A stretch of DNA of 24,000 nt from Ignavibacteriales bacterium (lineage in GTDB: Bacteria > Bacteroidota > Ignavibacteria > UBA10030 > F1-140-MAGs086). Below are positions 1 to 19,452 of the stretch, piece by piece (position 1 is the first letter of the stretch; each line of letters starts with the position of its first letter). The DNA is taken from the NCBI GenBank assembly GCA_018335975.1, contig JAGXRH010000001.1, forward strand, positions 6,215-30,214, read 5' to 3'. Below the pieces are notes generated by a model. The model was not told where the DNA came from. It saw only the letters and a program-made list of their open reading frames with translations, and searched no databases. The translations under genes and the position numbers were made by a program.

Positions 1-470
1 GCTTTACCGAAGTCTTTGCAGGGAGTTTAACGGGGGTAGTTTGGGGTTCCGTTGTTTGGGGCGATTATGATAATGACGGTGATTTGGATATTCTCCTGAC
101 GGGATACGTTAGTAGTGAATTTTACATTTCCAAAATTTATCAAAATACGGGAAGCGGATTTACTGAAGTTTTTGCTGGGAGTTTATTGGGAGCTGAAACT
201 GCAGACTGGGGCGATTATGATAATGACGGGGATTTGGATATTCTCTTGGCGGGATACAATGGTGTTTTGGGTTACCTTTCCAAAATTTATCAAAATACGG
301 GAAGCGGATTTACTGAAGTTTTTGCTGGGAGTTTACCGGGTGTTAATTCTGGTTTTGTAGCGTGGGGTGATTATGATAATGACGGCGATTTGGATATACT
401 TCTGACAGGATACGCCGATTCAGTTGTCGTTTCCAAAATTTATAAAAATACTGGGACGACATTTAACACC
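1..470 (+). repeat. Tandem coding repeat with a 150-nt period (about 3 copies), encoding the FG-GAP units
   Basis: nt 127-185 and 277-335 are identical over 59 nt. The block starting near 59 recurs near 209 with one mismatch. The outer copies (1-60 and 420-470) are diverged. Confidence 0.85.
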
Positions 471-2129
471 CCGCCCATTACTCCATCAGGATTAAATGTT
501 TCTATCTCTGGCTCCAACGCAACTTTACACTGGAATAAAACAACCGATGCACAAACTCCTAAGAATGGACTTACCTACAATCTGCGTATCGGCACATCAC
601 CAAACGGAATTAATACTCAATCCCCGATGGCAAATGTGAGCGACGGTTATCGCAGAGTTGTTCAGTTAGGAAATACCAATCACGATACAAGTTGGACGGT
701 CAAGAATCTTGCAAATGGTACGTACTACTGGAGTGTGCAAGCAATTGATAATGCGTTTGCAGGTTCGTCGTTTTCTCAGGAAGAGACGTTCACAATTGTT
801 CCTGTTGCTTCTGTGTTTTCTGTATCATCACCGAATGTTATATATGGAAACGTTTACGTAGGACAAACAAAAAAAGATAGTGTAACGGTTACGAATACAG
901 GAAATGCCACACTGAGCATTTCTTCTGTAACATCCAACAATACGAAGTTTGCTGTTACGCCAACAAGCGCATCAATTTCCGCATCGGGGAGTAAGAAGTT
1001 TTACATTACGTTTGTGCCAACATTAGGAGGAGAACAAAGCGGAACGATTTCTTTTACTGATAATGCAAGCGGCTCTCCGCATACGGTGAGTGTGAGTGGA
1101 ACGGGAGTACAACTTACTATTACCGCAACAACAGGAACAAACGGAAATATTTCTCCGTCGGGAAATGTTTTTGTCAATTATGGAGCGACTAAAATATTTA
1201 CTATTTCTTCAAACACCGGTTATCATAGTGATAGCGTATTTGTTGATGGAGTTTTCATTGGCGCGGTAAATAGTTATCCGTTTGTCAATGTAACGGCGAA
1301 TCATACCATCTCTGCACAGTTTGCAATCAATACGTACATCATTACTGCAACATCAGGAACAAACGGAAGTATTTCTCCATCGGGAAATGTTGTAGTCAAT
1401 TACGGTGAAGACACAACATTTATTATTTCTCCAAGCGTCAATTATCATATTGATAGTGTTATTGTTGATAATCAGTTTAGTGGAAATGATACAACATACA
1501 CGTTCACAAACGTTACGGGTAATCATTCGATTCGCGCTACGTTTGCAATGAATCTTCCATCGAAAGTTTTGTTAGTAACCCCCGCACACGACTCAGTAGT
1601 CAGCAGAGATAGTGTAAAGTTTGTGTGGAGAAAAGCATCGCCGTTTGTTTCTCAATATAACATAGAGCGTGCGTTCGATTCATTATTCACAAATGCAGTA
1701 ATTGATTCCACTTCCGATACATCGCACATCATTAACGGATTAAGTAATAGCCAAACGTATTGGTGGAAAGTAAAAGCAAGAAATGAAAGCGGATTTGGTG
1801 AGTATAGCGAAGCACGAAAATTTAGTGTGGTTATTCTATCCACAAAAGATGAAATTGGTTTGCCAAAAGTTTTCGCGCTTCATCAAAATTTTCCCAATCC
1901 TTTCAATCCCATAACGGAAATACAATTTGATTTACCGGAAGAAGTTTTTACAACACTGAAAATTTACGATGTATTGGGAAGAGAAGTTGCAACGTTAGTG
2001 AATGGAATTGAAACAGCCGGATATAAATCTGTAAGGTTCGATGCTTCTTCATTCAATAGTGGAATATATTTCTACAAACTTACGGCAGGGAATTTTATTT
2101 CAGTGAAGAAACTTGTGCTGATGAAATAA
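1..2129 (+). CDS. Secreted multidomain surface protein, 5'-truncated by the window edge. Contains FG-GAP/VCBS-type repeats, an FN3-like domain, a choice-of-anchor-D/HYDIN-like domain, two InlB-B-type repeats, a second FN3-like domain and a T9SS C-terminal sorting domain.
   Basis: The frame is open from nt 3 (FTEVFAGSL...), so the Met at 84 in the ORF track is internal. Repeated [17 protein letters not shown]...SKIYxNTGxxF motifs are present. There are two ~75-aa repeats (TATxGTNGxISPSGNVxVNYG...TxNHxIxAxFAxN). The C-terminus [20 protein letters not shown]...[22 protein letters not shown] is a typical type-A T9SS sorting domain. Confidence 0.9.
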
Positions 2130-4289: not shown

Positions 4290-4637
4290 ATGCAATCACC
4301 CATCAACACACAAGTAATAGATACCATTCTCGGAAAACCGGCGAAAAATGTCAACGTTGTTTTAGAAACACAAGCCGACAATAGCGAATGGAAAGAACTT
4401 GCGCGTTCTTCCACCAATACCGATGGAAAAATCGAGCAGTTGCTCCCGGAAAATTTTCCGTTGAAAGCGGGATTTTATTCGCTCATCTTCGACACGAAAT
4501 CGTACTATCAAGCAATGGGACTCGAAACATTTTATCCCGTCGTTCCCATCATCATCGAAATAAAAAACCAAACGGAGCAAACACACATCACGCTCTCGTT
4601 GAGTCCATACGGATATTCAACGCATAAAGGAAGGTAA
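4290..4637 (+). CDS. Transthyretin-like / 5-hydroxyisourate hydrolase family protein with atypical active-site positions
   Basis: 115 aa. GKPAxNVxVxL, TNxDGK and LSLSPYGYST align by eye to the HIUase pattern (HxLDxxxGKPA, TNxDGR, HYHxPLLLSPxGYxxYRGS). The C-terminus is HKGR instead of YRGS. Confidence 0.75.
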   Translation: MQSPINTQVIDTILGKPAKNVNVVLETQADNSEWKELARSSTNTDGKIEQLLPENFPLKAGFYSLIFDTKSYYQAMGLETFYPVVPIIIEIKNQTEQTHITLSLSPYGYSTHKGR

Positions 4638-4940: not shown

Positions 4941-6071
4941 ATGAACATTTATTCCGAAATTCTCTCCGCGCTGGAAACCGAGGAACGCGTAATGCTCGCA
5001 ACGATTATTTCCACTTCAGGTTCAACGCCGGCATCCGCTTTTTCAAAAATGTTAGTGAAAGAAAATGGAATTATTTCTATGGGAACGATTGGCGGCGGAT
5101 GTATGGAGGGCGACGTTCTTCTCCATTCGCGGCGGCTTTTAGAAACGGGGAAAACGGAAATTCTCTCGTTTCATTTGAACGAAGACGACATCGAACACGG
5201 TTTAATTTGCGGCGGAAGTCTGGAGGTAATGATTGAACCGGTTACGCGCGGGCAGATTTCCCTTTTCAAAGAAATTCTCTCATCACAAAACGAGGGAAAT
5301 GATACCGTGCTTGCAACGTTGGTTTCTTCAGAAGGAAAAGTTGTTCTTAAAAAGATTTTACGCAAAGAAACCTGGAGTAATGGAGAACTGTCCGAAGGAC
5401 TCCTTTCGGAGGAGCAATGGAGTAAAGAGTTTGACTACTCCAACCCTCCAACCCTCCAACCCTCCGTTCTAAAAGCAGAAATAGAAAAAACCTTTTCAAG
5501 AAATGAGACGCGAAAAATAAAAACCCAAAACGGGACGTTGATTCTCGAACCGATTCAGGGAACACCCTCGCTGATAATTTTCGGCGGCGGACACGTTTCA
5601 AAATACATTTCTAAAATTGCCGCGATGTGCGGATTTCAAATTACGGTAATTGACGACAGGGAAAAATTTGCAAACAACCAACGATTTCCTGAAGCAAAGG
5701 AAACGTTCGCTCGTGATTTCAAGGATATATTTCAAACAATTATCGTAACGCAATCAACGTACATCGTTATCGTAACGCGCGGACATCAGTTTGACGAAGT
5801 GGTTTTGGAACAGGTAATAAAAACGAACGCAAAATACATTGGAATGATTGGCAGCAAACGGAAAGTGCTGGCGACGTACGAACATTTGCGGGCGAGAGGA
5901 ATTTCGAACGAACAATTGAAACACATTCACTCGCCGATGGGAATCGAGATTGGCGCAACGACGGCGGAAGAAATCGCGGTGAGCATTGTGGCGGAAATGA
6001 TTCGTGTGCGGCGTGGGGGAAAAGAGGTACTCTCGCATAAATCCGATTCACTGAAAGAATATCTGCAATGA
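4941..6071 (+). CDS. XdhC/CoxI family molybdenum-cofactor insertion accessory protein
   Basis: 376 aa. The N-terminal XdhC_CoxI-like region has GGGCMEG and LICGG motifs. The C-terminal Rossmann-like region reads LIIFGGGHVSKYISKIAAMCGFQITVIDDREKF...VTRGHQFD...YIGMIGSKRK. Confidence 0.85.
   Translation: MNIYSEILSALETEERVMLATIISTSGSTPASAFSKMLVKENGIISMGTIGGGCMEGDVLLHSRRLLETGKTEILSFHLNEDDIEHGLICGGSLEVMIEPVTRGQISLFKEILSSQNEGNDTVLATLVSSEGKVVLKKILRKETWSNGELSEGLLSEEQWSKEFDYSNPPTLQPSVLKAEIEKTFSRNETRKIKTQNGTLILEPIQGTPSLIIFGGGHVSKYISKIAAMCGFQITVIDDREKFANNQRFPEAKETFARDFKDIFQTIIVTQSTYIVIVTRGHQFDEVVLEQVIKTNAKYIGMIGSKRKVLATYEHLRARGISNEQLKHIHSPMGIEIGATTAEEIAVSIVAEMIRVRRGGKEVLSHKSDSLKEYLQ
5439..5465 (+). repeat. 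Octanucleotide tandem repeat (tccaaccc x3.4) inside the XdhC interdomain linker
   Basis: tccaaccc occurs at 5439-5446, 5447-5454 and 5455-5462, followed by tcc. The repeat encodes SNPPTLQPS. Confidence 0.9.
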
Positions 6072-6313
6072 ATATCAATATCAAATTTTTTGCGGCAGCA
6101 AAAGAGGTCGCAGGGAAAGAAGAAATGCAATTTTCGCTTCCTTCCTCTTCCACCGCATCATCGCTTTTGGATTTACTCGTTGAACAATTTCCCGGACTGC
6201 AGGAATGGAAACAGTACGTTCGTGTTGCAGTGAATCAGGAATACGTTTCGCTCGATTACGCGTTGAATGAAAATGACGAAGTTGCAATTATTCCGCCGGT
6301 AAGTGGAGGATGA
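6068..6313 (+). CDS. moaD: Molybdopterin synthase sulfur-carrier subunit MoaD
   Basis: 81 aa. The N-terminus is INIKFFAAAKEVAGK and the C-terminus is VAIIPPVSGG (diagnostic Gly-Gly). The start overlaps the XdhC stop in an ATGA overlap at 6068-6071. Confidence 0.9.
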   Translation: MNINIKFFAAAKEVAGKEEMQFSLPSSSTASSLLDLLVEQFPGLQEWKQYVRVAVNQEYVSLDYALNENDEVAIIPPVSGG

Positions 6314-6338
6314 GTTCATTTTATATTTTAGATTTGAG

Positions 6339-6764
6339 ATGATAGAAATAGTTTCTGAAAAAATTGACATAACAAAAATTCTGCAAAGCGTGGAAGATAA
6401 TTCTGCCGGAGGAATTGATATGTTCATCGGAACAACGCGCGATAATTCAAAAGGAAAAAGCGTGTTGCGTTTGGAGTATGAAGCGTACATTCCGATGGCA
6501 TTGAAAAAAATGAATGAAATTGCCGGTGAAGCAAAAACGCGATGGAACATCAAAAAAATTTCCCTTGTTCATCGGATTGGGAAAGTGGAAATCGGCGAAG
6601 CGAGTATTGTGATTGCCGTTTCTTCCCCTCATCGCAAAGAAGCGTTTGAAGCGTGTCGTTATGCAATTGACACGTTAAAAAAGATTGTACCGATTTGGAA
6701 GAAAGAATTTTTTGAGGATGGTGAGGTGTGGGTGGATGCGCGGGAGGAGAAGATACTTTCGTGA
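6339..6764 (+). CDS. moaE: Molybdopterin synthase catalytic subunit MoaE
   Basis: FIGTTRDNSKGKSVLRLEYEAYIPMA...ISLVHRIGKVEIGEASIVIAVSSPHRKEAFEACRYAIDTLKKIVPIWKKE is the MoaE core. I prefer the ATG at 6339 (MIEIVSEK...). The ORF track's alternative GTG at 6303 would overlap moaD and adds an unconserved-looking extension. Confidence 0.85.
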   Translation: MIEIVSEKIDITKILQSVEDNSAGGIDMFIGTTRDNSKGKSVLRLEYEAYIPMALKKMNEIAGEAKTRWNIKKISLVHRIGKVEIGEASIVIAVSSPHRKEAFEACRYAIDTLKKIVPIWKKEFFEDGEVWVDAREEKILS

Positions 6765-6872: not shown

Positions 6873-7289
6873 ATGAAACGAACAATCAGCATACTTATAC
6901 TTATAACGGCATTTGCTTTCGTCTTGACAAATGCTCAGGATAAAATGGAAAAGAAAGACGAAATGATGAAAAAATCGGAAATGATGGAAAAGAAGATGAT
7001 GAAACGAAGCGATATGAAACATGATGAAATGGGAAAAATGAAATCATATATGTGCAGCGATGAAAAATGCGGGTTTATGGTGCAAAGTCCCGATGAAGAG
7101 GAAGTGATGTCCGCAACGAAAATGCACGGCAAAAAACATCACGATGTTGAAATGACAGACGAGATGGTAAAAGAAAAAATGGGCGGCGATATGATGAAAG
7201 GCGATGGAATGAAGAGAGGAAAAAGAATGCGCCGAGACGATATGATGAAAAAAGAGGAAATGATGAAGAAAGACGAAATGAAGAAATAA
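6873..7289 (+). CDS. Secreted methionine-rich protein with a central DUF1059-like small metal-binding (Cys/His) core
   Basis: Signal peptide MKRTISILILITAFAFVLTNAQ. By my count 26 of 116 mature residues are Met, set in MMKK/EMMEKK-type repeats on both sides of YMCSDEKCGFMVQSPDEEEVMSATKMHGKKHH (DUF1059-like C..CGF...EEE...H pattern). A strong terminator follows the gene. Confidence 0.8.
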   Translation: MKRTISILILITAFAFVLTNAQDKMEKKDEMMKKSEMMEKKMMKRSDMKHDEMGKMKSYMCSDEKCGFMVQSPDEEEVMSATKMHGKKHHDVEMTDEMVKEKMGGDMMKGDGMKRGKRMRRDDMMKKEEMMKKDEMKK

Positions 7290-7300
7290 TATATTTTTCA

Positions 7301-7338
7301 GAAAGCGATTCCCGGTTGAGGGAATCGCTTTCTTTTTT
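7301..7338 (+). terminator. Rho-independent terminator after the Met-rich gene
   Basis: Perfect 13-bp stem gaaagcgattccc (7301-7313) / gggaatcgctttc (7320-7332), a 6-nt loop, then tttttt (7333-7338). Confidence 0.85.
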
Positions 7339-7353
7339 CCGCTCCATTCTATT

Positions 7354-8067
7354 ATGAACGAACCAACGAAAACTATTTCTGTAAAGCGGAGAAAACTTCT
7401 CCAGCTTTCACCGCTTGTTTTATTCGCGGGCTGCGATTATTCTGCAAAAGGAAACGTAGATTCTTTCCTTACGTCCTTTCAAAAATTTACCGATTGGACG
7501 CAAGAAAAAATATTCGACCCGAATAAACTTGCGACGGAATATTCCGATGAAGAGGTAACGCCGATTGAGGGTTTTCGCGTGAATGGCTACGATACGGATG
7601 AACCGGATATTGATATGGAAAACTGGAGTCTGACCGTTGAGGGGCTTGTGAAAAATCCCGGCGAATATTCGCTTGAGCAAGTGCAATCGTTTCCTAAAAA
7701 AGTGATGAACACAAGACATTGTTGTGTCGAGGGTTGGAGTATGATTCCGAAATGGGGAGGAACAAGAGTAAGAGATTTTATGAAATCGGTTGGTGTTGAT
7801 GAAAAAGCAAAATATGTTGCCGTTGAGTGTGGCGATGATTATTTCACTTGTTTCTATATGCCAAGTTTTCTTCACGCACAAACATTACTTTGTTATGAAG
7901 CGTACAATAAGCCGCTTTCTCTTCAACATGGAGCGCCGGTGAGAATCGTGATGCCGACAAAACTCGGCTATAAATCTGCGAAGTGGTTAAATAAAATCAT
8001 TGTAACGAATGAAAAACCCGGCGGGTACTGGGAAGACCAGGGGTACGATTGGTTTGCAGGAATATAA
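7354..8067 (+). CDS. Periplasmic molybdopterin-dependent oxidoreductase of the sulfite-oxidase fold (MsrP/YedY-like), with a Tat-type signal and a possible lipobox
   Basis: VKRRKLLQLSPLVLFAGC is a twin-arginine-like leader ending in a Cys. HCCVEGWSMIPKWGG resembles the Mo-ligand Cys motif (CVEAWSM) that I recall for E. coli MsrP. GAPVRIVMPTKLGYKSAKWL matches the GAPxRLxxP.K.G.K motif. Confidence 0.8.
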   Translation: MNEPTKTISVKRRKLLQLSPLVLFAGCDYSAKGNVDSFLTSFQKFTDWTQEKIFDPNKLATEYSDEEVTPIEGFRVNGYDTDEPDIDMENWSLTVEGLVKNPGEYSLEQVQSFPKKVMNTRHCCVEGWSMIPKWGGTRVRDFMKSVGVDEKAKYVAVECGDDYFTCFYMPSFLHAQTLLCYEAYNKPLSLQHGAPVRIVMPTKLGYKSAKWLNKIIVTNEKPGGYWEDQGYDWFAGI

Positions 8068-8078
8068 AAGAGAATTTC

Positions 8079-8154
8079 AATGTAGAATGATGAAGTGAGG
8101 ATGTATGCGCTGGAAACTTGAACATTGGATATTGAACATTGAATATTCTACATT
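8079..8154. repeat. Inverted repeat enclosing a 14-nt-period direct repeat, upstream of the lipoprotein/cytochrome b genes
   Basis: aatgtagaat (8079-8088) is the exact reverse complement of attctacatt (8145-8154). ttgaacattg occurs at 8118-8127 and 8132-8141. The palindrome gaatattc lies at 8141-8148. Confidence 0.6.
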
Positions 8155-8181
8155 TGATACACTCTCAACACCAAGAGTTCA

Positions 8182-8391
8182 ATGAAATCAATTGTCATTT
8201 TTTTGTTAGCATTTTCTTTACTCTCCTGCGAAAAGAAAATCAACGTGGTTGCAATGAACGATAAGACAAAAATATTTCACAAACAAGATTGTCCGAAATT
8301 AATGATGGCGAATGTTCGGTTGATTACTGTTGAAGAAGCAAAACAGCGTGGAGGAAAACCGTGTCCGAATTGCAAACCCGAAACACGATGA
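8182..8391 (+). CDS. Small lipoprotein with an Ada-type (H/C-x3-C...C-x2-C) zinc-ribbon-like motif
   Basis: Lipobox LLSC (Cys16). His33-x3-Cys37-x23-Cys61-x2-Cys64 in IFHKQDCPKL...EEAKQRGGKPCPNCKP resembles the Ada N-terminal zinc site spacing (C38, C42, C69, C72 in E. coli Ada). Its stop overlaps the cytochrome b ATG. Confidence 0.7.
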   Translation: MKSIVIFLLAFSLLSCEKKINVVAMNDKTKIFHKQDCPKLMMANVRLITVEEAKQRGGKPCPNCKPETR

Positions 8392-9026
8392 ATAACACAG
8401 AAAAAGAATTTCACCATCCGCCCATCATTCGCATAACACATTGGCTCAATGCAATTGCGTTGCTGATAATGATAACGAGCGGGTTACGGATTTACAACGC
8501 TTCGCCGATTTTCGATTTCAGGATTCCATCGGTGTTTACCCTCGGCGGATGGCTTGCGGGAGCGCGTCAGTGGCATTTTTTCGGAATGTATTTGTTTACT
8601 GTTAATGGAATTATTTACCTTCTGTATAACCTGTTCACGAAACATGGACGGGAGACAACGCTCTTTCGAAAAAAAGATGCTGCCGGAATTATCCCAATGA
8701 TGAGATACTATGCGGGGTTGCAAAAAGAACATCCGCCGCAACGGAAATACAATGCCTTACAAAAATCTGCTTATACCGTAGTTCTCCTTCTTGGTTTTGG
8801 CGGAATACTTTCTGGGATTGCTATTTATTTGCCCGTGCAGTTATCATTTGTTACTGCATTGTTTGGAAATTATGATGCAGCGCGCGTGTGGCATTTTCTT
8901 TTTATGGGTGCGCTGGTGCTCTTTACAATCGGGCATTTGTTTATGGTTGTAATATCGGGATGGAGCAACTTCCTTTCGATGTTCACGGGGTGGGGGAGGA
9001 AATACTCTGAGCCACCTACTTTGTAA
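8388..9026 (+). CDS. Membrane di-heme cytochrome b (prokaryotic cytochrome b561 / Ni-hydrogenase cyt b-type family)
   Basis: Four predicted TM helices carry His residues in ITHWLNAIALL, QWHFFGMYLF, RVWHFLFMG and TIGHLFMV. I place the start at ATG 8388 (ATGA overlap with the upstream stop at 8389-8391) rather than the GTG at 8361. Confidence 0.8.
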   Translation: MNNTEKEFHHPPIIRITHWLNAIALLIMITSGLRIYNASPIFDFRIPSVFTLGGWLAGARQWHFFGMYLFTVNGIIYLLYNLFTKHGRETTLFRKKDAAGIIPMMRYYAGLQKEHPPQRKYNALQKSAYTVVLLLGFGGILSGIAIYLPVQLSFVTALFGNYDAARVWHFLFMGALVLFTIGHLFMVVISGWSNFLSMFTGWGRKYSEPPTL

Positions 9027-9118: not shown

Positions 9119-11845
9119 TTACTTTACAACCATAAGTTTTTTTGATTGGATAAAAATTTGTTTCCCGTCACGCAAAACAAGTAAACGATAAAAATACACT
9201 CCGCTTGAAACATTCGAGGCATTCCAATCAACCACGTGATTTCCCAATTCTAATTTTTCATTGTTCAAAAGAGTTTTTACTTCTTGTCCCAAGATGTTGT
9301 AAATTTTGAGTGTAACAGTTGAATTGTGGGGAAGAAAAAACGAGACCGTTGTTTTTGGATTAAATGGATTGGGGTAGTTTTGAGAAAGAAGAAAGTTTGT
9401 GTTCTGTAATGGAACATCTTTTATGGCGGTTGTAGGAGACGAAAAATGTAAAAAAGGAACATCGCTTAATCCCTTACAACCCCAAATGCGAATCGGGCTT
9501 TTGGTTATTATATACGGAGAACCAAGAAATGCATTATTGATTTTCCGAGCAACAGAATCAAGCGCATTATAATCAAAACCAAAGTCAAAAAAAGAAAGCG
9601 CGGAATCTATCTTTGCGGAAATTTGATAAATCGTATAACCGTTGAATGGGTCAGAGGGATTAGCGTTATCAAAGTATTGTAGGTAACCGAAGCGCCGGGG
9701 CGTAATATTTAATTCGCTTGCAAAAATGTTCATCTTCAGGGCAATTTGTTCTCCTGCCAAATGATTTTTATGGCGTGAATAGTACGGGTTAATTCTCTCG
9801 CCGGTTGTGCTATCTGCCCACCACGTAGAATCGTAATTAAGAAAAGGTTTGGCTGCGGCGGAACTGTCCAAGTAAGTTCCATTGATAATTGAATTTTGAG
9901 TAGGAAGGAAGCGGAGCAATCGGTTATACCATGAAATTCGAGCAAAACCATAAAAAGGTGGAAATGGTGATGGCGGCACTATATCGGATTTTACACCGAG
10001 GATAAGGTCGTTTGTTGTAGATAAATCTTTTTGCCGCAAAACTGAATCTCGAACATTTGCCCAAGACCATCGTCCTGTCGAGTCGGGATTACGTTTTAGT
10101 ACTGCCAGTACGAGAGTTTCCTGAGGAACGGTACAAAAACTCGGCTGAACAAGGGAATAAAAATTATTTGCATAAGAAATTCCTTTTCCTTGTTCAGGGT
10201 CTATCGTTATTTGTATTGTTCTTGTGCCAAGCACTTGCTGTGAACTTCCGCCGAAACCAGCAACAGCAGAATACCAATATGGTTTTCCGGAATCACAAAC
10301 GATTGTAAATGTTTGAGCAGCCACGCCAAGATTGCGAAAACTGTAAAATCCCAAATCGTTAGTAAGTGTAGATTCTACGAGGGCATCTCCTACAAAGCGA
10401 AATAATCTCCAATCCCCCTTTCCTTCTCTGTCGTGCGACGTTGCAGTATCGCCATCAAAATCTTCAAGCACTTGTCCGGTAATTGCGCTCGTCGTCGTAA
10501 AATATTTTGCCGTAAGTCCGTTTGTGCCGTTCGTTCCTGTTATATACACAGAGTTTGCCGCATCGAGAGTTATTGCGGTAAGGAAATCATTGTTGCTATT
10601 TCCATCGAGTTGTATATCCCATATTTTCGTACCGTCGAGATGATTCAATTTTGCAGCATAGAAATTTTTCAAACCTGTTGCAGTATCAGTAGAAATATAT
10701 CCACCGACGTACACTGCAGAATCGCTTCCGATTGAAACAGCAATTCCTCTATCAATCGAACTTGTACCAGCCAAAGGTCCGTTTATTTGTTTTGTCCAAA
10801 TTGTGTCTCCGGTGCTGCCACGATACTTTATTGTAAAAATATTTTCGCGTTCAATACCATGGTAATTCGTTCCTGTTATATACACATTATCCTCATTGTC
10901 TATTGCTATATCTGTAGGAATTTCATTCAAACCAACTAAAAAATTGTACCGTTTATTCCATAACACCTCGCCGTTGAGTGAATATTTTATCGTACGAAAA
11001 TCGGCATCGGAATTTCTCGAAACACCTGTAACAATAACATTATAGCTATCATCTACAACTAAGTCCACAACCTGGTCAATCTGAATATACAGTGGGACGG
11101 TATAACGACGTGTCCAAACCGTATCTGCTGAATTTCCGCTATGCGATAGTAGGACAGTAAAAAAATCAAAACTGGAGCCCGGTCCTGCACTGTAACCTCC
11201 AACATAAATTCTCCCCGCGGAAGCAACTCCAATACAAGTTCCTACGTCACTTCCTGTACCGCCATCTACAGTTTTTATCCATTGCGCAGTTGTCAAATTC
11301 GTACCGCTCGTTGCAGAATCGTACTTGATTACTACGAGGTCGGAAATTCCAGAAATAATTTCAACAGAACCGGTTACAAACACATTTCGATTTTTGTCAA
11401 GTACAAGAGCAAGCGCTTCATCAAATCCGGTTTGCCTATAACTGTAATTTCGATCCCAAAGAATGCTGCCACTCGCTCCATTAATTTTCGCTGTATAAAT
11501 GTTTGCGTGTCTTGATAAACCGGAGAAATACATTCTACCACACGCATAGAGATTTCCTTCATCGTCAATTTTCATATCAGCGAGCGAATCATTTCCATCA
11601 TTGTAAAAATTGTTTCTCCACAAAAGCATTCCATCTGCATTGTATTTGAGAATTACCCAATCGTGGTTAGAGGGGAGGGATTCGTTCATAACTCCGCCAA
11701 CAATCACATTCCCAGAACCGTCAACGAGAATTGCAACGGGAGAAAAAGCTTGTTCACTATCAGCCCATGCTTGTGTTACTTGCGCAGCTACCTCCGAAAG
11801 GCGAACACCCAAGAGAAGAAAGAAAAATACAATAAAGTTTTTCAT
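9119..11845 (-). CDS. Large secreted protein: SBBP-type beta-propeller repeats, an uncharacterised C-terminal half and a T9SS sorting domain
   Basis: Signal peptide MKNFIVFFFLLLGVRLSEVAAQ. Repeats are of the form GNV[YFI]VTG...D[FL]xTIKYxxxGxxLW. The C-terminus is LSQNYPNPFNPKTTVSFFLP...GVYFYRLL...KKLMVVK. AGGAG lies 8 nt upstream of the ATG. Confidence 0.9.
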   Translation of the reverse strand: MKNFIVFFFLLLGVRLSEVAAQVTQAWADSEQAFSPVAILVDGSGNVIVGGVMNESLPSNHDWVILKYNADGMLLWRNNFYNDGNDSLADMKIDDEGNLYACGRMYFSGLSRHANIYTAKINGASGSILWDRNYSYRQTGFDEALALVLDKNRNVFVTGSVEIISGISDLVVIKYDSATSGTNLTTAQWIKTVDGGTGSDVGTCIGVASAGRIYVGGYSAGPGSSFDFFTVLLSHSGNSADTVWTRRYTVPLYIQIDQVVDLVVDDSYNVIVTGVSRNSDADFRTIKYSLNGEVLWNKRYNFLVGLNEIPTDIAIDNEDNVYITGTNYHGIERENIFTIKYRGSTGDTIWTKQINGPLAGTSSIDRGIAVSIGSDSAVYVGGYISTDTATGLKNFYAAKLNHLDGTKIWDIQLDGNSNNDFLTAITLDAANSVYITGTNGTNGLTAKYFTTTSAITGQVLEDFDGDTATSHDREGKGDWRLFRFVGDALVESTLTNDLGFYSFRNLGVAAQTFTIVCDSGKPYWYSAVAGFGGSSQQVLGTRTIQITIDPEQGKGISYANNFYSLVQPSFCTVPQETLVLAVLKRNPDSTGRWSWANVRDSVLRQKDLSTTNDLILGVKSDIVPPSPFPPFYGFARISWYNRLLRFLPTQNSIINGTYLDSSAAAKPFLNYDSTWWADSTTGERINPYYSRHKNHLAGEQIALKMNIFASELNITPRRFGYLQYFDNANPSDPFNGYTIYQISAKIDSALSFFDFGFDYNALDSVARKINNAFLGSPYIITKSPIRIWGCKGLSDVPFLHFSSPTTAIKDVPLQNTNFLLSQNYPNPFNPKTTVSFFLPHNSTVTLKIYNILGQEVKTLLNNEKLELGNHVVDWNASNVSSGVYFYRLLVLRDGKQIFIQSKKLMVVK

Positions 11846-14870: not shown

Positions 14871-16592
14871 ATGAATGTAACCATTACATTAGACGGTCAG
14901 CAACTCGAAACTGATTCGTCGAAAACTATTATTCAAGCGGCAAGAGATAACGGAATTGCGATTCCGAATTTTTGCTGGCATCCGGCATTATCCATTGCGG
15001 GAAATTGTCGCATTTGTCTTGTGGATTCCGGAATGCCGAAGAAAACGCGCGAAGGACAAATCGAACGCGATGCAAGCGGAAATGCAATAATAATGTACGC
15101 GCCGAAATTACAAATCGCTTGCCAAACAACAGTTGCGGATGGAATGGTAGTGCAATCGAAATCGCCGAAGGTCATTAACGCGCGCGAAGCCGTGATGGAA
15201 TTTCTGCTCATCAATCATCCGCTCGATTGTCCGATTTGCGACGAAGCCGGCGAATGTAAATTGCAAGAATACGCATACAAACACAGCGTCGGTTACAGCA
15301 GATTTGAATTTGAAAAAGTTCGCAAACCAAAACGCGTTGATATCGGAACAAACGTTATGCTCGATACAGAGCGTTGCATTATGTGTTCGCGCTGCGTTCG
15401 TTTCTGCGATGAAATTGTGAAAGAGACATCGCTCACGTTCTCCAATCGCGGCGACCATGTTGAACTTACAACATTTCCCGGAACTTCGCTCGACAATGAT
15501 TACTCGATGAACACGATTGATTTGTGTCCCGTTGGCGCGCTCACGAGTAAAGATTTTCGTTTCAAAGCGCGTGTGTGGGAAATGTCGTCAACGGATTCTG
15601 TTTGTGTTGGATGTTCGCGCGGATGCAACACAACAATCGGCGTTCGCAACAATGAAGTTTTGCGATTAACGCCGCGTTTCAACGACGATGTTAATAATTA
15701 TTGGATGTGCGATAACGGAAGATTGAACACGTTTAAAAGTGTGAACGCAGAAACCCGTATCAAAGCGCCGATGATTCGCAAAGAAGGAAAACTTGTTGAA
15801 GTCGGTTGGGATGAAGCGTTTGCAAAAGTTGCATCGGAACTTCGCCGGTTTCAGAAAAATGAAATTGCAGTTCTCGGTTCCGCGTTTGCAACAAACGAAG
15901 ATAATTTTCTTTTACAAAAATTTGCAAAACAAGTTCTCGGAACAAAGAATCTTGATTTCTTTCAACACATAAAAGATGGCGATGAAGACGAACTTCTCAT
16001 TCGCGCAGATAAAACGCCGAATAGTTTCGGAACAAAAGAAATGGGCGTTGGAAATGGAAATGCAGAAAATATTTTAAACGGAACAATTAAAGTTTTGTAT
16101 TTGCTTGAAGATAACATTGCGGAAAATTCTGATGTTGCAAACCTTCTTTCAAAATTAGATTTCCTCGTTGTTCATTCATCGAATCACAATGAAACGACGA
16201 AACTTGCCGATGTTGTGTTTTCTGCTTCAACATACGCGGAAAAAAACGGAACGTTCACAAACTTTCAAGGAAATGTGCAGCGCATTCGTCCCGCAGTTGC
16301 AACGCTGGAACAAGACCGCGCGCTCGATGGATTTGCGATGAGTCGTTTGGATAAATTCGGTTCGCAATTTGATAGATGGATGAAAGGTGAAAAACGCGAC
16401 GCTCGTTCTTCGTGGAAAATTATTTCGGGAGTTGCCAACGCAATGAACGCAAAATGGAAATACAATTCCGCCGAAGATGTGTTCAAAGAAATTGCGAATA
16501 CGGTTTCAAGTTTTCAAGGAATGAGTTATTTTAAGATGAGAAATAAGGGAATGAAGTTGAATAGTAATTCGGTGGTTGAAAAAGGGGTGTAA
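14871..16592 (+). CDS. nuoG: NADH-quinone oxidoreductase subunit G (short form)
   Basis: The N-terminal 2Fe-2S region reads ITLDGQQLE...IPNFCWHPALSIAGNCRICLV. HPLDCPICDEAGECKLQ is the N5 HxxxCxxCxxxxxC motif. CIMCSRCVRFC and CPVGALT are the 4Fe-4S motifs. A molybdopterin-like domain follows. Confidence 0.9.
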   Translation: MNVTITLDGQQLETDSSKTIIQAARDNGIAIPNFCWHPALSIAGNCRICLVDSGMPKKTREGQIERDASGNAIIMYAPKLQIACQTTVADGMVVQSKSPKVINAREAVMEFLLINHPLDCPICDEAGECKLQEYAYKHSVGYSRFEFEKVRKPKRVDIGTNVMLDTERCIMCSRCVRFCDEIVKETSLTFSNRGDHVELTTFPGTSLDNDYSMNTIDLCPVGALTSKDFRFKARVWEMSSTDSVCVGCSRGCNTTIGVRNNEVLRLTPRFNDDVNNYWMCDNGRLNTFKSVNAETRIKAPMIRKEGKLVEVGWDEAFAKVASELRRFQKNEIAVLGSAFATNEDNFLLQKFAKQVLGTKNLDFFQHIKDGDEDELLIRADKTPNSFGTKEMGVGNGNAENILNGTIKVLYLLEDNIAENSDVANLLSKLDFLVVHSSNHNETTKLADVVFSASTYAEKNGTFTNFQGNVQRIRPAVATLEQDRALDGFAMSRLDKFGSQFDRWMKGEKRDARSSWKIISGVANAMNAKWKYNSAEDVFKEIANTVSSFQGMSYFKMRNKGMKLNSNSVVEKGV

Positions 16593-16598
16593 GTTTTT

Positions 16599-16859
16599 AT
16601 GCCAGAAATAAGTAGATTTTTCGGAATCATAATTACGATGAAGGCAAACGACCACAATCCTCCGCATTTACACGCAAAGTATCAAGATGAGCAAGCAATT
16701 TTTGATATTCAAAGTGGCGAAATTCTGCGGGGAAAATTTTCTGAGCGAGCAGCTCGATTAGTTCAAGATTGGATTCAATTACATTCTGTTGAGTTAATGG
16801 TTGATTGGAATTTGGCATCAAAAAATCAACTTATTTTTCCAATAACACCTTTAAAATAA
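16599..16859 (+). CDS. DUF4160 domain protein (second copy)
   Basis: ISRFFGIIITMKANDHNPPHLHAKYQDEQAIFDI..GEILRGKF.....LVQDWIQLHSVELMVDW. By eye it is roughly 40-45% identical to the copy at 13818. Confidence 0.8.
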   Translation: MPEISRFFGIIITMKANDHNPPHLHAKYQDEQAIFDIQSGEILRGKFSERAARLVQDWIQLHSVELMVDWNLASKNQLIFPITPLK

Positions 16860-16861
16860 AT

Positions 16862-17176
16862 ATGATTATGGACGAATGGATTACAATTACTTCCGTAGAA
16901 AATAAAAGCAATTACATTTTACGGTTAACATTCAGCGACGATTGCGTAAAAGAAATTGATATGTCGGATTTGAAATATCTTTCCGGTGATTTTTCTGTTC
17001 TCAACAACGAAGAAGATTTTCGGAAAATAAAAATTGTTGACGATGGCAGAGCGTTGCAATGGGAATGTGGTTACGATAATTGCGCGGATGAACTTCGTTA
17101 CTTTCGTGATTACATTTTTGCAGAAGGTTTAGAAAATTCTTCGTTTGAATTAGAAAAAGAAAATGTTATCGCTTAA
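16862..17176 (+). CDS. DUF2442 domain protein (second copy)
   Basis: ITSVENKSNYILRLTFSDDCVKEIDMS....GDFSVLNNEEDFRKIKIVDDGRALQWECGYDNCADELRY. I place the start at ATG 16862, 2 nt after the upstream stop, not at 16805. Confidence 0.75.
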   Translation: MIMDEWITITSVENKSNYILRLTFSDDCVKEIDMSDLKYLSGDFSVLNNEEDFRKIKIVDDGRALQWECGYDNCADELRYFRDYIFAEGLENSSFELEKENVIA

Positions 17177-17184
17177 CTTTTCAG

Positions 17185-17241
17185 CCACGAATTTCACGAA
17201 TTTTCACTAATGTGGTTTGTGCTAATTCGTGAAATTAGTGG
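17185..17241. repeat. 18-bp-stem hairpin (1 mismatch) built from CACGAATTT repeats, just upstream of nuoH
   Basis: ccacgaatttcacgaatt (17185-17202) pairs with the reverse complement of aattcgtgaaattagtgg (17224-17241) at 17 of 18 positions, with a 21-nt loop. It is followed by an A-rich rather than a T-rich tract. Confidence 0.7.
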
Positions 17242-17259
17242 CAACAAAAAATAAAAATT

Positions 17260-18294
17260 ATGTTTGAACTTTTCATCATCAGCACCATCAAAATCGTCGT
17301 AATGTTAATCGTATTATTAACCACTGCGGCGTATATGGTTTTAGCGGAACGACGAATCAGCGCGGCTGTGCAAGATAGAATCGGTCCCAATCGCGTTGGA
17401 TGGCAAGGGTTTTTGCAGCCGCTCGCCGATTTAGTAAAACTTGTTACGAAAGAAGACATTGTTCCGAAAGCGGCGAACAGATTTATTCACGACCTCGCGC
17501 CGATTATTTCCGTGTTCATTGCGCTTACAACATTTGCTGTTGTTCCGTTCGGAAATACGATTGAACTTTTCGGAAGAACAATCAAATTGCAAATCGCCGA
17601 CGTGAACATAGGCATTCTCTACATTCTTGCGCTCGCTTCGGTTGGCGTGTACGGAATTACGCTCGCCGGTTGGTCATCGAACAATAAATATTCGCTGCTC
17701 GGCGGAATGCGTTCATCTGCGCAAATGATTTCCTACGAACTTTCGATGGGACTTTCGATCATCGGCGTGGTGATGATTTCTTCTTCGCTGCAACTCGATA
17801 AAATTGTCGAAGCGCAAACCGGTTACGTTCTCGGTTTTCTTCCGAAATGGAATATCGTTTTACAACCGATTGGTTTCATTACGTTTCTTGTTTCGTCTTT
17901 TGCGGAAACAAATCGCACGCCATTTGATTTGCCCGAAGCGGAACCGGAACTCGTCGGCGGTTATCACACGGAATATTCGGGATTGAAATTCGGTTTATTT
18001 TTTCTCGCGGAGTATTGTAATATGGTTGTCGCAAGCGCAGTGATTACAACGCTGTATCTCGGCGGTTGGCAATTTCCGTACGTTGAATCATTTGGATTTT
18101 CTCCGTTCGTTGTAAGTTTATTGCAAGTCGGAGCGTTTGCGATAAAAGTTGGAGCGCTTTTATTTTTCTTCATTCTCGTTCGCTGGACTGTTCCGCGTTT
18201 TCGTTACGACCAACTGATGAATCTCGGATGGAAAGTTATGCTCCCGCTTGCGTTGGCAAATATTGTGGTTACGGGAATATTTTTGTTGATGTGA
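17260..18294 (+). CDS. nuoH: NADH-quinone oxidoreductase subunit H
   Basis: 344 aa and polytopic. Motifs: AERRISAAVQDRIGPNRVG, GWSSNNKYSLLGGMRSSAQMISYE, ETNRTPFDLPEAEPELVGGYHTEYSG and RWTVPRFRYDQLM. Confidence 0.95.
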   Translation: MFELFIISTIKIVVMLIVLLTTAAYMVLAERRISAAVQDRIGPNRVGWQGFLQPLADLVKLVTKEDIVPKAANRFIHDLAPIISVFIALTTFAVVPFGNTIELFGRTIKLQIADVNIGILYILALASVGVYGITLAGWSSNNKYSLLGGMRSSAQMISYELSMGLSIIGVVMISSSLQLDKIVEAQTGYVLGFLPKWNIVLQPIGFITFLVSSFAETNRTPFDLPEAEPELVGGYHTEYSGLKFGLFFLAEYCNMVVASAVITTLYLGGWQFPYVESFGFSPFVVSLLQVGAFAIKVGALLFFFILVRWTVPRFRYDQLMNLGWKVMLPLALANIVVTGIFLLM

Positions 18295-18303
18295 GGGAAG
18301 AAA

Positions 18304-18331
18304 TTTTAGATTTTAGAATTCAGATTTTAGA
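18304..18331. repeat. Short TTTTAGA repeat tract in the nuoH-downstream gap
   Basis: ttttaga occurs at 18304-18310, 18311-18317 and 18325-18331. A similar attttagatttgag lies in the moaD-moaE junction (6325-6338). Confidence 0.5.
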
Positions 18332-18391
18332 TTGAACGTTTCGCAAAGAGAATAAACTCGAACCTTGTAACTCTAAACCTCAAACTTTTTT

Positions 18392-18619
18392 ATGAACACA
18401 CAACCAATTTCTTTTTCAGATATTTTGCAATTAAGCGTTTCCGAACGCATTCAACTTGTCGAAGATATTTGGGATAGTCTTCGAGAAGTTCCGGATGAAT
18501 TTGGATTAAGTGATGCTCAGCGAAAAGAACTTGCGCGAAGAGCGGAAGAATTTTATAAAAATCCCAACGAAGGAATTCCTTGGAAAACGTTGAAAGCCAA
18601 TCTTCTCAATAGCAAGTGA
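18392..18619 (+). CDS. Addiction-module antitoxin (putative addiction module component family)
   Basis: LQLSVSERIQLVEDIWDSL....LSDAQRKELARR is the characteristic LSxxERxxLxxxxWDSL motif. Its stop overlaps the toxin start (GTGA at 18616-18619). Confidence 0.8.
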   Translation: MNTQPISFSDILQLSVSERIQLVEDIWDSLREVPDEFGLSDAQRKELARRAEEFYKNPNEGIPWKTLKANLLNSK

Positions 18620-18912
18620 AGTTAGAGAGTTTAATACGCTCTGATGCACAACGAGAAATTACAGAAACATTTCAGTGGTATGAAAATCAGAGTAACGGTC
18701 TCGGTACAGAATTCCTCCGTGCTGTTGATGCTGCAATTGCTTCGATTGAACGATTTCCTAAAGCATTTCCAAAAGTTGAAGGTGAAACAAGAAAAATTTT
18801 GTTACGAAGATTTCCTTACGCTATTTTTTATATTGTTCACCTGGATATAATTGCAATAACCGGATGTTATCATCAAAAACGCCATCCGGAAATTTGGCGA
18901 AACAAATCGTAG
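18616..18912 (+). CDS. Type II toxin-antitoxin system toxin, RelE/ParE family
   Basis: AQREITETFQWYENQSNGLGTEFLRAVDAAIASIERFP.....V.G..RKILLRRFPYAIFY......I.I.GCYHQKRHPEIW is the ParE-like pattern. Confidence 0.8.
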   Translation: MKLESLIRSDAQREITETFQWYENQSNGLGTEFLRAVDAAIASIERFPKAFPKVEGETRKILLRRFPYAIFYIVHLDIIAITGCYHQKRHPEIWRNKS

Positions 18913-18936
18913 CGACAAATAACGAATAACTCTTTT

Positions 18937-19452
18937 ATGAAAGACAACGGACAAACAACAAAACAAGTTCGCAACGAAAACCTATCGTTTTTGCAGCGAA
19001 CATATATTCCCGAAATTGCAAAGGGATTAGTTCTCACGTTTGGAAAAATGTTTGGGAAAAAATTCACTCGGCAATATCCCGAAGAACGATGGACTCCTCC
19101 GGCATCATTTCGCGGAAGACCGGTTCTCGTGCAAGAAGAAAACGGAACAGAACGCTGCGTTGCGTGTGGATTGTGCGCGCGCGTTTGTCCCGCATTAGCA
19201 ATTGAAATGCAAGCGAGCGAAACACCGCTCTACGATAAAGAACGTTATCCCGTAAAATTTGAAATCAATATGCTTCGCTGCATCTTCTGTGGATTTTGCG
19301 AAGAAGCGTGTCCCGAAGAAGCAATCGTTATGAGTGATGAGTACGAACTTGTGTTCGATAAAATGGAAGATGCAGTTTTCGGAAAAGATAAACTCCTCAT
19401 CCCGAAAAAGAAATTACAAAAGCGTTTGGATTTTTTGCGCGAATATAAATGA
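18937..19452 (+). CDS. nuoI: NADH-quinone oxidoreductase subunit I
   Basis: Two ferredoxin-type motifs: [12 protein letters not shown] and [12 protein letters not shown]. An N-terminal amphipathic region is typical of NuoI. Confidence 0.95.

Follow-up and report, generated by a model that had tools for sequence, protein, structure and literature searches.

Four consecutive plus-strand genes in a 24,000-nucleotide stretch of an Ignavibacteriales genome (contig JAGXRH010000001.1 of assembly GCA_018335975.1, positions 6,215 to 30,214; hereafter the window, whose own numbering we use) encode a secreted methionine-rich (Met-rich) protein, a molybdenum (Mo) enzyme exported by the twin-arginine translocation (Tat) pathway, a small His-Cys3 lipoprotein, and a di-heme cytochrome b. 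We consider it likely that this cluster is the Ignavibacteria version of the periplasmic methionine sink and reductase system of Azospira and uropathogenic Escherichia coli (UPEC). For the window itself, the outcome is chiefly a functional assignment, to which two unusual decorations are added, and not a new type of system. The decorations are the features that look new, namely, a Met-rich protein built around a DUF1059 core and a conserved, exported Ada-like lipoprotein encoded between the Mo enzyme and the cytochrome b. To our knowledge, sacrificial-methionine defense has so far been studied only in Proteobacteria. As homologous modules are present in Ignavibacteria/Bacteroidota and in many soil and peat Acidobacteriota genomes, cycling of methionine in the periplasm may be widespread among environmental bacteria.

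Components of the module

A sequence-only reading of the window had described these four open reading frames (ORFs) and likened them to the MrpX-YedY1Z1 system of Azospira. The ORF list confirmed all four (Table 1), and the description given of each product agreed with the composition and profile analyses reported here, as did the likeness to MrpX-YedY1Z1, which comparative genomics and the homology of the Mo enzyme and cytochrome b to a UPEC operon bear out.

The Mo enzyme, in which a Tat leader and a CVEGWSM motif had been recognized, matches Pfam Oxidored_molyb (E = 3.6e-36), the sole domain found. Its leader combines a KRRK twin-arginine motif with a lipobox (LFAGC), and the Arg pair and the lipobox Cys are invariant in 20 close homologs; given the lipobox beside the Tat leader, the enzyme is predicted to be a Tat-exported lipoprotein. 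The motif reads HCCVEGWSM in full, and among 161 family members conservation reaches 95% or more for the Arg pair, C124, E126, G127, and W128. The top NCBIfam match is MsrP (NF003767), at 101.8 bits over nearly the full length and under the equivalog cutoff of 207. This score is twice that of any sulfite dehydrogenase model (SoxC, SorA, and SorT, with 49.8, 43.5, and 30.5 bits versus cutoffs of 420 to 600), and the closest solved structure is E. coli YedY (1xdq; E = 1.5e-13). The Pfam scan revealed neither a C-terminal dimerization domain nor a c-type cytochrome partner. The enzyme has about 3,000 detectable relatives, and its family carries a signature of its own (TRHxCVEGW, C159-x-D-x-Y, and a C-terminal GYWEDQGY replacing the longer MsrP tail). 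Two related genomes of class I (defined below) encode a second, divergent Oxidored_molyb paralog (E ~1e-19 against the enzyme of the window), roughly 3 kb downstream of their modules (L001, 9916-10755; L002, 10180-10788).

The cytochrome b matches Pfam Ni_hydr_CYTB (PF01292; E = 5e-29), and four His residues (H18, H63, H169, and H183) show conservation of 97% or more across 134 homologs. Its most likely start is the ATG at 8388, rather than the GTG at 8361 given in the ORF list; that ATG overlaps the lipoprotein stop codon as ATGA (8388-8391), in agreement with the translational coupling noted in the sequence-only reading.

The mature Met-rich protein, which follows an N-terminal signal peptide, contains 26 Met among 116 residues (22.4%), and about 50% of its residues are Lys, Asp, Glu, or Arg; the Met content of the other 15 window genes is 2.05% (binomial P ~8e-21 for the Met-rich protein). 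Residues 56 to 101 match Pfam DUF1059 (PF06348) with 28.3 bits versus a cutoff of 21.1, and the Met/Lys/Glu/Asp-rich flanks around this core contain 27% Met. The Cys2/His2 columns of the core (C61, C66, H85, and H90) are invariant in eight homologs. In an AlphaFold2 (AF2) model, the core adopts a beta-beta-alpha-alpha arrangement with a predicted local distance difference test score (pLDDT) of ~88 to 94, and the flanks, at less than 50, are consistent with disorder; a Foldseek search of the model against the PDB returned nothing below E = 1. DUF1059-cored Met-rich proteins are rare, with eight among 5.8 billion proteins. Near the start of the window core is a C-x4-C pair (CSDEKC, residues 61 to 66), and a C-x4-C pair (MCKDGMCK) is also found in the E. 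coli Met-rich peptides (the Met-rich ORFs considered were L162 5873-6115 and those of L145/L148). Judged from these sequences, the shared pair may be a disulfide, a metal site, or a chance resemblance.

Table 1. Features of the module and its surroundings (window coordinates)
Feature	Position	Strand	Remarks
XdhC-family molybdenum cofactor (Moco) chaperone, MoaD, MoaE (molybdopterin synthase)	4941..6764	+	probably cofactor supply
Secreted Met-rich protein	6873..7289	+	138 aa; signal peptide ~aa 1-22; proposed sacrificial oxidant sink
DUF1059 core of Met-rich protein	7038..7175	+	aa 56-101; C61, C66, H85, H90 conserved
Intrinsic-terminator-like hairpin and T run	7300..7343	+	between Met-rich gene and Mo gene
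Tat-exported, lipobox-bearing sulfite-oxidase-fold Mo enzyme	7354..8067	+	237 aa; proposed Met-sulfoxide reductase, YedY1/C3567 type
Three tandem 14-nt repeats (TTGAACATTGGATA)	8118..8159	.	inverted partner 8076-8088; Mo/lipoprotein intergenic region
Ada-like His-Cys3 lipoprotein	8182..8391	+	69 aa; presumably Zn
Four-helix di-heme cytochrome b (PF01292)	8388..9026	+	212 aa from ATG 8388; proposed quinol-side electron donor

Gene orders across the family and kinship with known systems

We surveyed 80 genome loci and 80 metagenome loci carrying relatives of the Mo enzyme by ORF calling, phmmer, and composition scripts, scoring as Met-rich those ORFs with at least 6 Met and at least 10 Lys, Asp, or Glu residues per 40-residue window and a hydrophobic leader before it. 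The Mo gene adjoins a PF01292 cytochrome b of the window type in 78 of the 80 genome loci and in about 145 of all 160 loci, and three gene orders recur. Class I (Ignavibacteria/Bacteroidota; Mo enzymes 58 to 100% identical to that of the window) has the order [MoaD-MoaE]-[Met-rich]-Mo-small lipoprotein-cytochrome b. Class II, represented by 75 Acidobacteriota loci (43 to 50% identical), has Mo-cytochrome b-extracytoplasmic function (ECF) sigma-anti-sigma and, beyond these, a Met-rich gene encoded on the other strand. Class III (37 to 44% identical; Proteobacteria where the taxonomy is known) has cytochrome b-Mo-Met-rich. An adjacent Met-rich gene was found in 5 of 12 informative class I loci, 25 to 40 of 72 class II loci, and 33 to 35 of 60 class III loci. 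The composition filter picked out 67 strong Met-rich ORFs in 1.39 Mb of locus DNA, none of them farther than 4.5 kb from the Mo gene, and their positions are fixed within each class. The class II and class III proteins belong to the TIGR02953 penta_MxKDx family (43.8 and 71.9 bits for those of L042 and L103; cutoff, 41). Secreted Met-rich ORFs thus stand beside this Mo/cytochrome b family in three gene orders, and the lack of co-occurrence that would have counted against the sequence-only reading is not observed.

The slot before the Mo gene is occupied by a DUF1059-type Met-rich protein in the window and in L168 (P0123; 67% identical). In L166, L001, and L002, the same slot instead holds Met/Lys/Glu(/Gly) repeat proteins that are unrelated to the DUF1059 type and contain neither Cys nor His. 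The occurrence of differing Met-rich sequences in one slot suggests that selection acts on Met content and not on the fold. A second Met-decorated protein is encoded in L168, where a gene at 2-538 (+), directly upstream of the DUF1059 Met-rich and Mo genes, specifies a secreted SnoaL-like protein (PF07366; E = 1.5e-35) with Met-rich N- and C-terminal tails.

The system to which the cluster was initially likened belongs to the SigF regulon of Azospira suillum PS, which includes yedZ1-yedY1-mrpX (Dsui_0156-0158) (PMC3884062, PMC4436054); MrpX is both induced and oxidized by hypochlorite (Melnyk et al.). Both loci encode a secreted, highly charged protein with about 20% Met, a Tat-exported PF00174 Mo enzyme, and a membrane cytochrome b that is not of the PF01794 type. 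They differ in three respects. Whereas the Azospira order is cytochrome b-Mo-MrpX, the window has the Met-rich gene, a terminator, and then the Mo, lipoprotein, and cytochrome b genes; MrpX has been described as MXKDX-like and unstructured, in contrast to the folded DUF1059 Cys/His core of the window protein; and the SigF/NrsF regulator adjoining the Azospira genes has no counterpart in the window, which has the extra His-Cys3 lipoprotein. The link to Azospira draws on published Pfam assignments and on Caballeronia and UPEC proxies rather than on direct sequence comparison. The first proxy, a plasmid of the betaproteobacterium Caballeronia, carries DUF1109(NrsF)-ECF sigma genes divergent from cytochrome b, Mo, and "pentapeptide MXKDX repeat protein" genes, the layout of Dsui_0154-0158, and its Mo enzyme is 42.5% identical to that of the window. 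Brucella BcrX, which has been given the TIGR02953 family name, has been described as homologous to Azospira MrpX (PMC8315932).

The second proxy is the UPEC operon. A class III human-gut metagenome locus proved 99.9% identical to E. coli plasmids, and a 73%-identical chromosomal copy in UPEC 536 has histidine kinase and response regulator genes divergent from cytochrome b-Mo-Met-rich-hlyCABD. This locus matches C3564-C3568, i.e., the OrhK/OrhR-controlled c3566-c3568 operon, in which c3566 and c3567 mutants are oxidant sensitive and c3568 has been termed an MrpX homolog (PMC8550376); pathogenicity island PAI-II of UPEC 536 had been counted among the "yedYZ-mrpX" carriers earlier (Melnyk et al. 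2015). Over the full length, the Mo enzymes of the window and of UPEC 536 are 39% identical (E = 1e-62), and the cytochromes b are 42% identical (E = 4e-36). Window and UPEC share the Tat Arg pair, lipobox Cys, CVEGW motif, and GYWEDQGY C terminus of the Mo enzyme, a PF01292 cytochrome b, and an adjacent secreted Met-rich peptide with a C-x4-C pair, and the window enzyme falls in the clade of C3567, which is compatible with the oxidant-related role proposed in the sequence-only reading. The UPEC genes differ in their cytochrome b-Mo-peptide order, two-component control, and fusion to the hemolysin operon; no His-Cys3 lipoprotein is encoded in the operon and no Moco genes lie nearby, and the 80-residue peptide is near-MXKDX (35.2 bits) and lacks a DUF1059 core.

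The resemblance to canonical MsrPQ (E. coli YedYZ) is more distant. Both systems pair a periplasmic, Tat-exported enzyme with the sulfite-oxidase fold and a C-V-E-A/G-W-S motif with a membrane b-type cytochrome, but the window enzyme is about 100 residues shorter than E. coli MsrP, has another C terminus, and is 27% identical to it over 186 residues. The membrane partners differ in family: E. coli MsrQ is PF01794, whereas those of the window and UPEC (C3566) are PF01292, and BLASTP detected no similarity between the window cytochrome b and E. coli MsrQ. C3566 has been reported to be 23.1% identical to MsrQ, and the UPEC pair has been treated as an MsrPQ system (PMC8550376). The two partner types can be compared in loci L162 (4476-5075; PF01292) and L169 (3484-4119; PF01794). 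On the strength of these family assignments, the literature conflates two different membrane partners, and YedY1Z1 and the UPEC "MsrPQ-like" enzymes are best described not as MsrPQ orthologs but as a distinct family of Mo enzyme plus cytochrome b561.

These comparisons revise one of the three differences from Azospira listed in the sequence-only reading and leave the other two in place. The cytochrome b561-type donor is not such a difference, since Dsui_0156, annotated "yedZ," is a PF00033 cytochrome b (with Dsui_0157 as PF00174, in the order yedZ-yedY-mrpX; PMC3884062) and the UPEC partner is PF01292. The cytochrome type therefore sets the window apart from canonical MsrPQ and not from the Azospira system, of which the window cluster is a distant homolog and not a different electron-donor design. 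The DUF1059 core and the extra metal-site lipoprotein stand as differences. Hence, the suggestion of an undescribed variant holds in part: the DUF1059 core and the lipoprotein look new, whereas the core module is a distant homolog of a described system.

The His-Cys3 lipoprotein and a putative Acidobacteriota regulon

The small lipoprotein (lipobox, LLSC) had been credited with an Ada-like His/Cys3 metal site on the basis of its motif, and H15, C19, C43, and C46 proved invariant in 20 homologs. A first homolog search with the 69-residue protein retrieved itself alone, and an exhaustive phmmer run took its place. A profile of the 20 members matches the Ada N-terminal Zn structures (1adn, 1eyf, 1zgw, 1u8b, and 1wpk) over the whole domain with E = 4e-5 to 2e-4. 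The window protein itself scores 18.8 bits against Pfam Ada_Zn_binding (PF02805; cutoff, 23), and a 41%-identical lipoprotein (P0142) exceeds the cutoff with 25.5 bits. The whole 50-residue Ada N-terminal Zn(Cys4) domain aligns, and the lipoprotein family keeps three of the four Zn-ligand Cys residues and the E-A...G-[FY]-x-P-C-x-x-C pattern; the methyl-accepting ligand of Ada, Cys38, is replaced by the invariant His. Moreover, whereas the Ada domain is cytoplasmic and DNA bound, the domain described here is exported, being either a lipoprotein in its own right or the part of an anti-sigma factor that lies in the periplasm.

Genes for lipoprotein homologs of 70 to 90 residues, each with a lipobox, separate the Mo gene from the cytochrome b gene in 11 of the 17 class I loci analyzed (window included). 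Beyond these 11, the lipoprotein is present in L166, and a 74-residue ORF occupies the same slot in L167; it is missing from the class I loci more distantly related to the window. The anti-sigma factor encoded in the class II operon starts with a zf-HC2 domain and ends in the same Ada-like domain, whose position after a transmembrane helix implies that it is periplasmic. Exhaustive phmmer also revealed the His variant as 5 to 9 tandem copies in large proteins, indicating that it is a general small metal-binding module and not unique to the Mo/cytochrome b system. Examples of these arrays (P0130, with 711 residues; P0137; and P0143) show YH..GC...QAVEDGF.PC..C repeats after an N-terminal transmembrane helix and match Pfam DUF6233 and Ada_Zn_binding.

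In 32 of 37 Acidobacteriota loci, we identified an ECF-type promoter-like motif, G[TA]AAC[TC]T-N13-19-[AC]ATC[TC], 72 to 93 nt upstream of the MXKDX start codon. Across 1.82 Mb scanned on both strands, 97 matches were found, of which 47 lie just upstream of a Mo gene and most others lie upstream of an MXKDX gene. Its distance from the Mo gene is about 50 to 200 nt (L006-L080), and the MXKDX gene is on the minus strand. This shared placement is the pattern of an autoregulated ECF regulon consisting of the Mo enzyme, cytochrome b, sigma factor, anti-sigma factor, and Met-rich protein, and it parallels the SigF regulon of Azospira; the GTAAC of the SigF/BcrS promoters (PMC8315932) resembles the -35 element of the Acidobacteriota motif. 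The motif is absent from the window.

In Acidobacteriota, the zf-HC2 anti-sigma factor with the Ada-like extracytoplasmic domain appears to control the Mo enzyme/cytochrome b/MXKDX regulon. We therefore raise, tentatively and as something short of an even chance, the possibility that the exported Ada-like His-Cys3 domain is a hitherto unrecognized periplasmic oxidant (hypochlorous acid) sensor or a redox-switch subunit of the Mo/cytochrome b system and that, in Ignavibacteria/Bacteroidota, the sensor domain now stands alone as a lipoprotein whose translation is coupled to that of the cytochrome b. If so, YedY1Z1/C3566-7 would be a separate and very widespread Mo-cytochrome b561 family, treated in the literature as MsrPQ, and its members would employ at least three independent sensing solutions, namely, a two-component system, NrsF, and an Ada-like anti-sigma factor. 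The most interesting by-products of the analysis lie outside the window, in the Acidobacteriota regulon with its Ada-like anti-sigma domain and in the distinctness of YedY1Z1/C3566-7 from MsrPQ. From the analysis, a small exported His-Cys3 domain emerges as a candidate for sensing oxidants in the periplasm.

Proposed function, competing explanations, and genomic context

From gene content, homology, conserved residues, synteny, and the Acidobacteriota promoter motif, we infer the following chemical steps. By analogy with MrpX, reactive chlorine or oxygen species entering the periplasm would oxidize Met residues in the disordered flanks of the Met-rich protein, presumably an abundant secreted protein. 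The Tat-exported, lipid-anchored Mo enzyme, whose closest characterized relative by sequence is MsrP, would then reduce the Met sulfoxides back to Met. Electrons would come from the quinol pool via the adjacent PF01292 di-heme cytochrome b, as suggested by its conserved pairing with the Mo enzyme and its four His residues, and the upstream MoaD, MoaE, and XdhC probably supply the cofactor. The His-Cys3 lipoprotein, which presumably binds Zn, would be a lineage-specific accessory that most likely acts as a redox-sensitive sensor or docks on the Mo/cytochrome b complex as a subunit, because in Acidobacteriota the operon-encoded ECF anti-sigma factor has this domain as its periplasmic end.

A number of observations weigh against this reading. 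Roughly half of the loci in each class lack an adjacent Met-rich gene, as do some close relatives of the window (L167, the P0005 contig, and L081/L090). The window Met-rich protein scores 13.3 bits against TIGR02953 (MXKDX; cutoff, 41) and hence is not a member of that family, and P0125 and P0127, likewise secreted Met-rich proteins of the DUF1059 type, have no Mo module nearby, implying that this type is not generally tied to the enzyme. Within the window, a hairpin with a 14-bp stem (7 G-C pairs; 7300-7333) followed by TTTTTT separates the Met-rich gene from the Mo gene, and with so strong a terminator between them, cotranscription is not assured. Among the window genes scanned, there is no sigma factor, anti-sigma factor, histidine kinase, or response regulator, and the sole sensor-like item is the stand-alone His-Cys3 domain. 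The AF2 model of the Mo enzyme, built from 20 close homologs, has a mean pLDDT of 60, too poor for a fold search or active-site analysis. PF01292 cytochromes serve both oxidizing and reducing periplasmic enzymes, and as this one may also pass electrons from the enzyme to the quinone, gene content leaves the catalytic direction unfixed. Finally, a capacity to reduce methionine sulfoxide is putative for the whole clade, and Melnyk et al. themselves applied that word to YedY1.

Several of these points would also fit a broader role, in which the Mo enzyme and cytochrome b carry out general, MsrPQ-like repair of oxidized periplasmic and outer membrane proteins and the Met-rich protein is one substrate among many or a separately transcribed neighbor and not a dedicated sink. 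The many family loci without an adjacent Met-rich gene and the terminator that the window Met-rich gene has of its own agree with such a role, as does the broad substrate range reported for E. coli MsrP. However, Met-rich genes have been recruited beside the pair independently in three gene orders, and in Acidobacteriota the ECF-type motif is common to the pair operon and the Met-rich gene, which argues for a specific partnership where the gene is present. We therefore regard general repair as improbable, although it is the strongest of the competing explanations.

The sequence-only reading had itself offered another alternative, in which the Met-rich protein takes up Cu(I)/Ag(I) in the periplasm in the manner of PcoE/SilE and the Mo enzyme is unrelated; we add to it the variant in which the Mo enzyme only keeps the thioether ligands reduced under copper stress. 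The 22% Met content together with the conserved Cys2/His2 of the DUF1059 core would suit such a buffer, and one database source labels a homolog of the protein a "predicted small metal-binding protein." In addition, one study reports repair of the Met-rich copper chaperone CusF by E. coli MsrPQ under copper stress (PMC9302797), and in Caulobacter, chromate and cadmium elicit a response of the SigF regulon (PMC3511200). Nevertheless, no metal-resistance genes (P-type ATPase, CusCFBA, or multicopper oxidase) are present in the window or in annotated relatives, and a Pfam scan of the protein at E values of up to 0.1 returned DUF1059 alone and no PcoE/SilE-type family. Relatives fill the same slot with repeats devoid of Cys and His, and it is hypochlorite that has been found experimentally to oxidize MrpX-type proteins. 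Nothing that we found speaks for a metal sponge at this locus, and we judge it quite unlikely.

Least probable is that the Mo/cytochrome b pair acts on a small molecule, as a sulfite:quinone oxidoreductase or a reductase of S-oxides, N-oxides, or oxyanions, with incidental Met-rich neighbors: the sulfite-oxidase fold, the weak SoxC, SorA, and SorT matches, the versatility of PF01292 cytochromes, and some Rhizobium and Methylobacterium homologs without a Met-rich neighbor agree with it, but the best profile is MsrP, the motif is C-V-E-G/A-W-S and not the C-A-G-N-R-R of sulfite oxidases, the dimerization domain and c-type cytochrome partner are missing, and both the co-occurrence and coregulation with Met-rich genes and the oxidant phenotypes of the UPEC mutants stand against it.

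The probable sink and reductase module is preceded in the window by XdhC (4941-6071), MoaD (6068-6313), and MoaE (6303-6764), all three of which had been recognized in the sequence-only reading and were confirmed by profile scans; XdhC, MoaD, and MoaE likewise lie upstream of the module in L001, L002, L166, L167, and the P0005 contig. XdhC normally serves enzymes of the xanthine dehydrogenase family. Urate-catabolism genes adjoin XdhC here, and a role as a dedicated chaperone of the Mo enzyme was set aside as unproven. One of these neighbors, at 4290-4637 (+), encodes a hydroxyisourate hydrolase/transthyretin of the cytoplasmic type. The contig of a 71%-identical relative has the order Transthyretin-Urate_ox_N-XdhC-MoeA-MoaD-MoaE-Mo, and in E. 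coli K-12, hiuH is directly upstream of msrP-msrQ. The proximity of hiuH to Mo modules could be a coincidence arising from a urate-catabolism cluster, or it could be a recurring link with HiuH.

The tandem 14-nt repeats between the Mo and lipoprotein genes are a possible operator or internal promoter; they are not kept in L166, the closest relative with DNA available (83% identical). Farther downstream, NADH dehydrogenase genes (NuoG-like, NuoH, and a NuoI-like ferredoxin) form a run at 14871-19452 that a DUF2442 ORF (16805-17176) interrupts. The remaining window encodes two M16 peptidase pairs and two large proteins sorted by the type IX secretion system (84-2129; 9119-11845).

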